Below are positions 1-6,249 of a stretch of DNA of 6,249 nt, one piece after another. The stretch comes from a virus (taxonomy: Duplodnaviria; Heunggongvirae; Uroviricota; Caudoviricetes), in the IMG/VR virus record IMGVR_UViG_2778261571_000006, one strand, 5' to 3'. Below the pieces are notes generated by a model. It was not told the origin of the DNA. It saw only the letters and a program-made list of their open reading frames with translations, and ran no database searches. A program made the position numbers and the translations under genes. Positions within the stretch are counted from its first letter, which is position 1. Every line of letters begins with the position of its first letter.

Positions 1-38
1 ATTTGAAAACAAGAACCTCGCTTAGGCCTGTGTCCATA

Positions 39-308
39 TTACGTGGGTAGGATCACATCACGCAGAACATCATTTTCAGCTTTCGCATCAGCTAACTCCT
101 TCGTGTATTTTGCATCGAGCGCAGCAACATCACGCTGACGCATCTGCATGTCAGTAATTGCCGCGTTCGCCAGCTTCAGTTCTCTGGCATTTTTGTCGCG
201 CTGTTCTTTGTAGGCGATGGCGTTATCACGGTAATGATTAACACCCCATGACAGGCAGACGACGATGCAGATAACCAGAGCGGAGATAATCGCGGTTACT
301 CTGTTCAT
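39..308 (-). pseudogene. Rz-like i-spanin, C-terminally truncated (about 89 aa instead of about 150)
   Basis: ORF 39..320(-). The likely true start is the ATG at 306-308, which overlaps the endolysin TGA stop (ATGA). The N-terminal hydrophobic segment ([19 protein letters not shown]) and [30 protein letters not shown] core match lambdoid Rz as I recall it. The reading frame ends abruptly (…[12 protein letters not shown]), where canonical Rz continues about 60 more residues. Confidence 0.6.
53..88 (-). pseudogene. Rz1 o-spanin remnant (first 11 codons only, embedded in Rz in the +1 frame)
   Basis: Hand translation of the minus strand from the ATG at 86-88 gives [11 protein letters not shown] followed by TGA. 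This matches the start of the lambdoid Rz1 signal peptide but stops before the lipobox. The break coincides with the Rz truncation point. Confidence 0.45.
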
Positions 309-667
309 TGCTGACCCCACAAACAGATTTCACGCTCAATCTCACGACGAGTCATGAGACCTTTCCATTGCTTACCGCCAGCATATGTCCAGCGACGTAG
401 CTGATCACATGCGCCTTTGATATCGCCCTGGTTTATTTTGCGAAGAAGCGTCGATGTTCTGAAATTGCCAGCACCCACGTTGTAAACGAATGAGTAAAGA
501 GCGCCGCGCGTTGTTTCCGGTATATCGACTTTGATGTACGGGTTAATTTGTCTGGCGACCGTGGCAAGGTCTTTATTCAGGAGGGCTTTGCATTCTGCTT
601 TGGTATACGTTTTACCGAGCATGATGTCTTTTCCTGTATGCCCGTGACATACAGTCCATACACCAAC
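305..667 (-). pseudogene. SAR endolysin (phage 21 R-type lysozyme), 3' portion downstream of the IS2 insertion
   Basis: ORF 305..802(-); the residues encoded from 667 down to 305 ([28 protein letters not shown]…EICLWGQQ) read as a lambdoid lysozyme. The ORF's first about 45 residues are encoded by the IS2 left end and are not part of the original gene. Confidence 0.9.
663..667. repeat. Target-site duplication, left copy (CCAAC)
   Basis: The 5 bp immediately outside the IS2 left end are identical to the 5 bp at 1999-2003 outside the right end. Confidence 0.8.
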
Positions 668-758
668 TAGACTGGCCCCCTGAATCTCCAGACAACCAGT
701 ATCACTTAAATAAGTGATAGTCTTAATACTAGTTTTTAGACTAGTCATTGGAGAACAG

Positions 759-1124
759 ATGATTGATGTCTTAGGGCCGGAGAAACGCAGACGGCGTACC
801 ACACAGGAAAAGATCGCAATTGTTCAGCAGAGCTTTGAACCGGGGATGACGGTCTCCCTCGTTGCCCGGCAACATGGTGTAGCAGCCAGCCAGTTATTTC
901 TCTGGCGTAAGCAATACCAGGAAGGAAGTCTTACTGCTGTCGCCGCCGGAGAACAGGTTGTTCCTGCCTCTGAACTTGCTGCCGCCATGAAGCAGATTAA
1001 AGAACTCCAGCGCCTGCTCGGCAAGAAAACGATGGAAAATGAACTCCTCAAAGAAGCCGTTGAATATGGACGGGCAAAAAAGTGGATAGCGCACGCGCCC
1101 TTATTGCCCGGGGATGGGGAGTAA
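759..1124 (+). CDS. insC: IS2 OrfA (InsC), transposase N-terminal DNA-binding component
   Basis: ORF 714..1124(+); the likely true start is the ATG at 759 ([40 protein letters not shown]…), which is preceded by GGAGAACAG. Helix-turn-helix-like N-terminus. 121 aa. Confidence 0.9.
1076..1082 (+). other. Programmed -1 ribosomal frameshift site (A AAA AAG) joining OrfA and OrfB
   Basis: The heptamer A_AAA_AAG sits in the OrfA zero frame (GCA AAA AAG). A -1 slip continues into the OrfB frame (…K K V D S A R A L…). This is the standard IS3-family arrangement. Confidence 0.7.
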
Positions 1125-1987
1125 GCTTAGTCAGCCGTTGTCTCCGGGTGTCGCGTGCGCAGTTGCACTTCATTCTCAGACGAACCGATGACTGGATGGA
1201 TGGCCGCCGCAGTCGTCACACTGATGATACGGATGTGCTTCTCCGTATACACCATGTTATCGGAGAGCTGCCCACGTATGGTTATCGTCGGGTATGGGCG
1301 CAGCTTCGCAGACAGGCAGAACTTGATGGTATGCCTGCGATCAATGCCAAACGTGTTTACCGGATCATGCGCCAGAATGCGCTGTTGCTTGAGCGAAAAC
1401 CTGCTGTACCGCCATCGAAACGGGCACATACAGGCAGAGTGGCCGTGAAAGAAAGCAATCAGCGATGGTGCTCTGACGGGTTCGAGTTCTGCTGTGATAA
1501 CGGAGAGAGACTGCGTGTCACGTTCGCGCTGGACTGCTGTGATCGTGAGGCACTGCACTGGGCGGTGACTACCGGCGGCTTCAACAGTGAAACAGTACAG
1601 GACGTCATGCTGGGAGCGGTGGAACGCCGCTTCGGCAACGATCTTCCGTCGTCTCCAGTGGAGTGGCTGACGGATAATGGTTCATGCTACCGGGCTAATG
1701 AAACACGCCAGTTCGCCCGGATGTTGGGACTTGAACCGAAGAACACGGCGGTGCGGAGTCCGGAGAGTAACGGAATAGCAGAGAGCTTCGTGAAAACGAT
1801 AAAGCGTGACTACATCAGTATCATGCCCAAACCAGACGGGTTAACGGCAGCAAAGAACCTTGCAGAGGCGTTCGAGCATTATAACGAATGGCATCCGCAT
1901 AGTGCGCTGGGTTATCGCTCGCCACGGGAATATCTGCGGCAGCGGGCTTGTAATGGGTTAAGTGATAACAGATGTCTGGAAATATAG
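1082..1987 (+). CDS. insD: IS2 OrfB (InsD), DDE transposase catalytic component, expressed mainly as an OrfAB fusion
   Basis: ORF 1082..1987(+), 301 aa, GTG-initiated in the track ([13 protein letters not shown]…). Contains integrase-core-like motifs (…WCSDGFEF…, …[11 protein letters not shown]…, …ESNGIAESF…). Overlaps OrfA in the -1 frame. Confidence 0.9.
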
Positions 1988-1998
1988 GGGCAAATCCA

Positions 1999-2003
1999 CC
2001 AAC
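1999..2003. repeat. Target-site duplication, right copy (CCAAC)
   Basis: Identical to 663-667. IS2 is known to make 5-bp duplications. Confidence 0.8.
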
Positions 2004-2138
2004 AATATCTTTGTATGGTATGTAGCTGACACCTTCCAGACCATCGTTACCACTTGGGCCAGTGATTAACACTGATGCTATAGCAATTGCTCCGCCACCA
2101 ATAGCAGCAGCAACGGCTTTTCGTAATGATGGAGGCAT
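1999..2138 (-). pseudogene. SAR endolysin (phage 21 R-type), 5' portion upstream of the IS2 insertion
   Basis: ORF 1821..2138(-). The N-terminus [47 protein letters not shown] is a Gly/Ala-rich signal-arrest-release segment. The start ATG at 2136-2138 overlaps the holin stop (TAATG). Removing IS2 and one TSD copy rejoins this to 305..667 in frame: 140 + 363 - 5 = 498 nt, i.e. 165 codons plus stop. Confidence 0.9.
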
Positions 2139-2353
2139 TATTCACCTCTCGCAGCCTTGCGCTTATCTTCTTTAATCTTGAAATAAAGGTTTGTCAGGTA
2201 CGTCAGCAGGCCAAATACCAGACTACCCAGCACACCGATTGCAGCCCACTGTGACGGAGTTACTCTATCGAGCAACTGTAAAAACCAGTAGCCAGCACTG
2301 CCTGCGGAGGTGCCGTAGGCAATGCCTGTTGAAATTTTGTCCATGGATTTCAT
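2138..2353 (-). CDS. Pinholin (phage 21 S-type class II holin) with dual start Met1/Met4
   Basis: ORF 2138..2410(-). The likely true start is the ATG at 2351-2353, preceded by GGAGGTGAGGCT, giving [26 protein letters not shown]…[12 protein letters not shown] (71 aa). Two transmembrane segments and a charged C-terminus. Met1-Lys-Ser-Met4 matches the antiholin/holin dual-start motif. Confidence 0.85.
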
Positions 2354-3638: not shown

Positions 3639-3696
3639 ACAGCGAATCAGATCAAATAAAACGCACATTTGTTAACATTTACACAAAGTCTGCGTG

Positions 3697-3717
3697 GGAT
3701 ATTCTGAAAGAATATCC
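3697..3717. promoter_or_regulatory. Perfect 21-bp palindrome GGATATTCT-GAA-AGAATATCC (candidate operator)
   Basis: 9-bp arms with a 3-bp spacer, about 60-100 bp upstream of the candidate lipoprotein promoter. No adjacent T-run on either strand, so it is not terminator-like. Confidence 0.35.
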
Positions 3718-4170
3718 ATAATGTGGAGAGAATCTATTGAAGTGCATGGTGCCGGGTGCCTCCCGGTGAACAAAATGTTCGTGATACCTGTCGGCGACAG
3801 AAAAGGTTAATGGTATCACCCCACCGCACAGGGGGATTCACCATGCAGGAGTTTTCTTAGCAAACTCACTGCGCGCCCGGCAACTCCCAACCACATAAAA
3901 TGCGGAGTTTGTGGTATTTATGCATATAACTCGCAGGAATTATCTTAAAAAACTGATGTCGATCCGGATTAAAAAGAAGCAGGTCATCATCAGATGACTG
4001 GAAAAAAGGAAAACAAAAAATACTCATCATACAGTTTTGATTGCAGGGATGAGCCTGCTATGCACAATATGCAGAATATAAGCAAGATAAAAATATGCAG
4101 GCATATTATTTCGGATTTTGTTATTAACACAACCTTTTTAATAATCATTTGGCATACAATAAACCAGCCC

Positions 4171-6194: not shown

Positions 6195-6249
6195 GGTAAT
6201 GACTCCAACTTATTGATAGTGTTTTATGTTCAGATAATGCCCGATGACT
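6195..6249 (-). mobile_element. IS1 end (terminal inverted repeat), element continues beyond the window
   Basis: GGTAATGACTCCAACTTATTGATAGTGTTTTATGTTCAGATAATGCCCGATGAC matches the IS1 terminus including the InsB 3' end. Only this end is visible. Confidence 0.85.
6210..6249 (-). CDS. insB: IS1 transposase InsB, C-terminal codons only (partial at window edge)
   Basis: The minus strand reads …VIGHYLNIKHYQ* with the TAA stop at 6210-6212, which is the InsB C-terminus as I recall it. Confidence 0.7.
   Translation of the reverse strand, partial: VIGHYLNIKHYQ

Follow-up and report, generated by a model that had tools for sequence, protein, structure and literature searches.

An IS3 insertion joint in the overlapping Rz and Rz1 spanin genes of a cryptic Rac/Qin-type prophage of Escherichia coli

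The window, which is the whole stretch of DNA analysed here, is the reverse complement of the entire 6,249-bp contig NLNA01000072.1 of the draft assembly GCA_002229155.1. All of its phage genes lie on the minus strand, and in the order of transcription they are a DUF1367 gene, a YbcO-family gene, a Q-like DUF1133 gene, two TolA-domain genes, the holin gene, the endolysin gene split by an IS2 element, and Rz. The features are as follows.

1..55, plus strand: right end of IS3, with the end of orfB, its TAG at 23-25 and the right terminal inverted repeat to 55
56..58, no strand: one copy of the IS3 target-site duplication, CAT on the plus strand; read along Rz it is ATG, codon 11 of Rz1
56..308, minus strand: 5' fragment of Rz (i-spanin), codons 1-84 and the first base of codon 85 (ORF list and translation)
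53..88, minus strand: remnant of Rz1 (embedded o-spanin), ATG at 88-86, 11 native codons to 56, TGA at 55-53
305..667, minus strand: distal part of the endolysin gene R (rrrD), starting within codon 47
668..1998, plus strand: IS2 in the endolysin gene, 1,331 bp, delimited against the uninterrupted R of CP53 and annotated as IS2 in F467
1999..2138, minus strand: proximal part of R, 140 nt, being 46 codons and two bases of codon 47
2138..2353, minus strand: intact phage-21-type holin gene S (essD, 71 aa; PF04971, 120.9 bits)
3000-2605, minus strand: lipoprotein-like gene with a TolA C-terminal domain (PF06519, 54.6 bits)
3579-3151, minus strand: lipoprotein-like gene with a TolA C-terminal domain (PF06519, 82.6 bits)
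5166-4624, minus strand: Q-like DUF1133 gene (ORF list and Pfam)
5453-5163, minus strand: YbcO-family gene (ORF list and Pfam)
6052-5453, minus strand: DUF1367 gene (ORF list and Pfam)

The holin matched positions 1-63 of the 64 in the PF04971 profile, and its translation was identical to EssD of the uninterrupted CP53 locus, with an N-terminus of MKSMDK in which methionines at residues 1 and 4 are visible. The IS2 in the endolysin gene has the defining features of that element and is bordered by a 5-bp target duplication, CCAAC, at 663-667 and 1999-2003. Removal of IS2 and one copy of the duplication in silico restored a 165-aa lysozyme that differed from RrrD of CP53 by one residue. Upstream of the holin gene, the tandem TolA-domain lipoprotein-like genes occupy the stretch after the Q-like gene, a typical position for morons, and it is conceivable that the pair serves as a decoy for TolA-dependent colicins or filamentous phages. 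In CP53, an IS3-family element was found between essD and the TolA-domain gene (L002 4014-5242). A full-length match to the STnc100 sRNA family (RF02076) lies at 3690-3876 on the minus strand, where genes are sparse between the Q-like gene and the first of the TolA-domain genes; it scored 86.6 bits against a gathering score of 47. This was the only hit of the Rfam scan of the window and lies far from the joint between Rz and IS3, and the search of the window for tRNA genes found none. In the scan of positions 1-700, promoter and terminator counts were not above those of shuffled sequence, with nothing at the joint.

The Rz frame runs on the minus strand from 308 to 39 and has 89 codons (MNRV…AENDVLRD / VILPT and a stop, the slash marking the joint). 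Native Rz continues through window position 56 (Rz nt 253), and the DNA is foreign from 55. Past the joint, the frame takes in five IS3-encoded codons and then meets TAA at 41-39. Rz1 lies inside Rz in the +1 frame, so that a single insertion cuts both genes at one nucleotide. The TGA ending Rz1 is supplied by the terminus of IS3, and the five extra Rz codons, the Rz stop and the Rz1 TGA are all IS3 sequence. The intact allele of CP53 (L002 2789-3253), which was 100% identical from position 56 onward, encodes an Rz of 154 aa (…LRDDVAAGRRRLHIK…) and an Rz1 of 61 aa that begins at Rz nt 221. Because this allele, identical up to the joint, reads full-length Rz and Rz1, both frames of the window depart at the same nucleotide. 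Across 56-667 the window was 100% identical to uninterrupted loci.

The intact allele has the architecture of the lambda-type Rz/Rz1 pair (PF03245, PF06085), with an N-terminal membrane anchor in Rz and an Rz1 embedded wholly in the +1 frame with the lipobox …VVGC, and the Rz DNA of the locus was 98-99.8% identical to Rz of deposited lambdoid Escherichia phages. In contrast, the window holds only codons 1-84 of Rz and codons 1-11 of Rz1, a pseudogene remnant. What remains in the Rz fragment is the transmembrane segment at the N-terminus and the larger part of coiled coil 1. The truncation after residue 84 of 154 takes away the remainder of coiled coil 1 together with the linker, coiled coil 2 and the C-terminal residues, and the complete periplasmic domain with its C-terminal residues contacting Rz1 is thus not present in the window. 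In the PF03245 profile (Phage_lysis, 126 positions), Rz of the window matched positions 1-56 and that of the intact allele 1-125. Rz1 is truncated after residue 11 of 61, inside the signal peptide and before the lipobox cysteine, Cys20, which is absent; PF06085 (Rz1) starts at this residue, and the remnant stops nine codons short of it. The signal peptide, lipobox cysteine and proline-rich domain that mark the Rz1 family were found together in the intact allele and not in the window.

The foreign side of the joint is the right end of IS3. Window 1-56, which comprises 55 IS3 bases and one flanking base, was 100% identical to annotated IS3 (E = 3e-20), so that the joint is not a matter of chance, and annotated IS3 copies identical to 1-56 were present in 3,582 of 5,426 complete E. 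coli genomes. Positions 1-25 are the last 25 nt of the IS3 transposase gene (22 nt of orfB and the TAG stop), and 2-25 on the plus strand encode …FENKNLA and a stop, as at the end of the transposase gene annotated in F467. The right terminus lies at 55 and reads …GGATCA (…GGGTAGGATCA), with the canonical final CA. In F467, a 1,258-bp IS3 (L001 5798-7055) ends in the same 55 nt that the window shows, and its imperfect terminal repeats are TGATCTTACCCAGC… and TGATCCTACCCACG…. The left end of IS3 reads TGATCTTACCCAGCAATAGTGG…. The transposase is convergent with Rz. In everything visible, the window does not differ from IS3; the end of the contig limits what it holds to the final 55 nt. IS3-family elements make target duplications of 3-5 bp (PMC10379815). 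The triplet CAT is single in the intact allele, which reads AACATCATCACGCAG around the joint (plus strand …GCAACATCATCACGCAG…), and one copy of it is visible in the window at 56-58. IS3-bearing genomes read …AACATCAT / IS3 / CATCACGCAG, and in F467 and 2017.01.04CC a direct reading of both sides (…GCAACATCAT / IS3 / CATCACGCAG…) showed CAT duplicated, with a full element and a 3-bp duplication at the same junction as in the window.

The sequence-only reading had given the end of Rz as …LRDVILPT and had stopped the Rz1 frame after 11 codons, before its lipobox, and the translation confirms both. The shared breakpoint, which it had put at about 55-60, is narrowed by comparison with the intact allele to the joint between 55 and 56 in both frames; the alignment to intact Rz/Rz1 loci that it had proposed for this purpose yielded the CP53 allele, identical from 56 onward. 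Positions 1-56, which it had regarded as of unknown origin, are now accounted for, since 1-55 are the IS3 right end at 100% identity. Its preference for a deletion or rearrangement joint over point mutations was right in that there is a single structural joint, but this is the joint of an IS3 insertion and not primarily that of a deletion.

The exact Rz/IS3 junction was found in four complete records representing three strains, namely F467 (NZ_OY754409.1), 2017.01.04CC (NZ_AP021891.1; deposited twice) and ET5 (NZ_CP101014.1). Public assemblies contained 44 contigs encoding the 89-aa truncated Rz product and 29 more encoding an 84-aa version that ends with the contig. The occurrence of the junction in complete records and in many public assemblies shows that it is real and not an assembly chimera. 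RefSeq labels the same allele 'lysis system i-spanin subunit Rz, incomplete' beside an 'IS3-like element IS3 family transposase'. Both F467 and 2017.01.04CC have their genes in the order trkG, the distal Rz/rzoD fragment, IS3, the proximal Rz fragment and rrrD, and the distal half of Rz/Rz1 is intact beyond the 1,258-bp IS3 and is followed by trkG. The three strains differ from the window elsewhere in the cassette. F467 has an extra IS3 between rrrD' and essD (L001 9171-10333), whereas 2017.01.04CC and ET5 show no IS2 at the site of the window, their match to 1-700 stopping at 667, and rrrD of 2017.01.04CC is annotated as uninterrupted. None of the complete RefSeq E. coli genomes reproduced the whole window, and the closest among them was F467, with its extra IS3. 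The closest colinear relative was the complete assembly GCA_974490395.1 (L007), which had a single mismatch over 6,249 bp and shares the IS1 flank, the IS2 and the IS3 of the window. In a full IS3, a programmed -1 frameshift joins orfA and orfB, and a 1,258-bp IS3 annotated with a programmed frameshift lies at the same junction in F467, 2017.01.04CC and GCA_974490395.1.

In GCA_974490395.1, the left end of IS3 abuts Rz nt 420 and the duplicated triplet is absent (L007 9500-9740). The missing DNA is a 169-bp deletion adjacent to IS3, which comprises the duplicated triplet and Rz nt 254-419, and with them Rz codons 85-140 and the rest of Rz1. F467 has the same IS2 and IS3 insertions but not this deletion, which must therefore be later than both. 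Beyond IS3, draft contigs of other assemblies (L019, L020) pick up Rz again at nt 251 and are likewise undeleted. The sequences expected on the far side in the two states are as follows, the last two being given on the Rz strand.

Junction, undeleted: …TGGGTAAGATCA / ATGATGTTGCCGCTGG
Junction, deleted: …TGGGTAAGATCA / ACTTGAAGGTGCTCAG
Read for a simple insertion with distal Rz/Rz1 kept: …TGGGTAAGATCA / ATGATGTTGCCGCTGGTCGTC
Read for a 169-bp deletion as in GCA_974490395.1: …TGGGTAAGATCA / ACTTGAAGGTGCTCAGC

On the far side in F467 (L006 9512-9667), the duplicated ATG makes the distal piece of Rz1 begin ATG ATG TTG…. In genomes with a simple insertion, this piece is an open frame of 51 codons that keeps the lipobox and is without the charged N-terminus of the signal peptide, and some GenBank records carry it as a hypothetical protein. 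The 51-aa ORF was found on 43 contigs, a count unusable for how often the distal half is kept because the ORF also arises from other alleles, and GCA_002229155.1 was not among the contigs listed in this look-up.

The contig NLNA01000072.1 breaks 55 nt into IS3 at one end and 55 nt into IS1 at the other, where window 6195-6249 is exactly 55 nt of the IS1 terminus. Such equal overhangs suggest a de Bruijn assembler, with k presumably 55, which leaves them at repeats. The contig ends inside IS3, so the far side of the element lies outside the window, and since one IS3 end and one triplet are visible, a simple insertion in the genome of the window is not directly demonstrated. In that genome the distal half of Rz/Rz1 would be either retained 1,258 bp away or partly removed by an IS3-adjacent deletion that followed the insertion. 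The deleted state is a serious possibility, to which we give somewhat less than even odds. Among complete assemblies, GCA_974490395.1 alone shares the overall arrangement of the window (an IS1 flank, IS2 in R, IS3 in Rz and no extra IS3), and in it the 169 bp are deleted. However, F467 and 2017.01.04CC share the proximal junction and yet keep the distal half and the duplication, F467 with the same IS2 as well; ET5 shares the Rz/IS3 junction as read on its proximal side, and the undeleted distal junction recurs in the draft contigs L019 and L020. If the adjacent deletion did take place, the earlier suggestion of a deletion would be partly right.

Other explanations dispense with the IS3 insertion altogether. 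The break of both frames at one nucleotide might also come from a plain deletion or rearrangement that fused Rz to unrelated, non-mobile DNA, but the foreign DNA matches the IS3 terminus exactly, up to its canonical final CA, and the relatives carry the 3-bp duplication. The identity with IS3, and the full IS3 with its duplication in the relatives, refute this explanation, whose probability we regard as negligible. A naturally short i-spanin accompanied by a separate, non-embedded o-spanin elsewhere was the case that the sequence-only reading had named as speaking against a truncation. An open frame of 89 codons does exist, and nothing more favours this case, while alleles with 100% identity as far as the joint go on to encode full-length Rz and Rz1, Pfam coverage ends at profile position 56 of 126, and IS3 supplies the last five codons as well as both stops. 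The intact alleles, the Pfam coverage and the IS3-derived ends refute it, and it is as good as impossible that the gene is short by nature. The contig is a short-read one whose ends are each exactly 55 nt of an IS, as is typical of breaks in a de Bruijn graph, and its end might therefore be a chimera joining Rz to an IS3 k-mer. It is very improbable that the joint arose in this way, as four complete chromosomes and dozens of independent assemblies have exactly this junction.

The reading that we prefer is that an IS3 insertion explains both the truncation of Rz/Rz1 and positions 1-55, with a probability of about 0.95. In this mechanism, IS3 would have transposed into the overlapping Rz/Rz1 genes of a cryptic lambdoid prophage of the Rac/Qin type, entering at Rz nt 251-253 and duplicating the triplet ATG (CAT on the plus strand of the window). 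The short-read contig would then have broken inside the IS3 repeat, leaving the last 55 nt of the element visible.

In addition to the joint of the window, other lesions were found nearby in Rz. A stretch of about 42 bp of the gene contains at least three independent IS3 insertions, found in a search that was biased toward the site:

Rz nt 251-253: IS3 in the window and its relatives, duplication CAT/ATG
Rz nt 280-282, same orientation: IS3 in EH10-18-47 (NZ_CP063499.1, L005 2798-4055), duplication GTG/CAC
Rz nt 241-244, opposite orientation: IS3 in CP073974.1 (L014 1233-2490) and in L018, 4-bp duplication GTTC

The IS3 of EH10-18-47 is 29 bp deeper in Rz, at the codon of the Rz1 lipobox cysteine, and that of CP073974.1 is 7-10 bp from the site of the window. 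Further IS elements occur in the cassettes of relatives, namely IS2 in R, an additional IS3 between R and S, or an IS3-family element upstream of S, and the holin is intact. Lesions in a stretch of about 40 bp suggest a local hot spot, but the sampling was strongly biased toward interruptions near this site and the hot spot is for that reason only a lead. It is unlikely, in our estimate, that the Rz/Rz1 overlap is a preferred IS3 target or that IS knock-outs of endolysin and spanin that spare the holin have been selected. Several assemblies (L015, L016, L017, L021-L023) carried another lesion, a 72-nt in-frame deletion in Rz between CGTGATG…TGTTGC repeats, which removes the start codon of Rz1 and leaves an ORF of 51 codons, MMLPLVVVGC….

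The flanks of the cassette were seen in related complete genomes, where trkG and ynaK come directly after it and hokD and relBE before it. These flanks identify the cassette as the late region of a defective lambdoid prophage of the Rac/Qin type in E. coli. In the relatives (L001, L004), one side has Rac-type genes (trkG, ynaK, pinR and then uspF) and the other has Qin-type genes (hokD, relBE, ydfV, flxA). Relative to K-12, the flanks suggest a Rac/Qin hybrid. We take the Rac prophage of K-12 to carry a remnant of rzpR/rzoR next to trkG and to have lost the upstream lysis genes by deletion. The relatives show the same neighbourhood, with the spanin genes directly upstream of trkG and ynaK, whereas in cassettes of the window type S, R and Rz/Rz1 are all present and are interrupted by IS2 and IS3.

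The consequences for lysis can be judged from phage lambda. There, nonsense mutations at sites all along the periplasmic domain of Rz make lysis defective, only the final residue being dispensable, and those of Rz1 up to W46 do so too (PMC5295617). Since such truncations of lambda Rz and Rz1 abolish lysis (PMC5295617), we infer a loss of spanin function here, and both alleles are expected to be null. The earlier claim that two of the three lysis functions are broken and the holin kept agrees with our results, in which IS2 interrupts the endolysin gene, IS3 interrupts the spanin genes and the holin is EssD. At the level of sequence, the endolysin and the spanin pair are broken and the holin is intact. 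Neutral decay is the most economical reading of these lesions, because the prophage is defective anyway and has trkG next to it at the place expected for packaging genes.

The IS3-interrupted Rz allele is already known, as RefSeq annotates an incomplete Rz next to IS3, and it represents ordinary IS-mediated decay of a cryptic prophage. The value of the result lies mainly in a correct annotation: the locus is a pseudogene pair interrupted by IS3, in a defective prophage and at the point where a draft contig ends. A short unexplained sequence at a contig end beside an abruptly ending gene should be tested against IS termini first. For prophage biology, the locus is one more case of a cryptic-prophage lysis cassette decaying by IS insertion.
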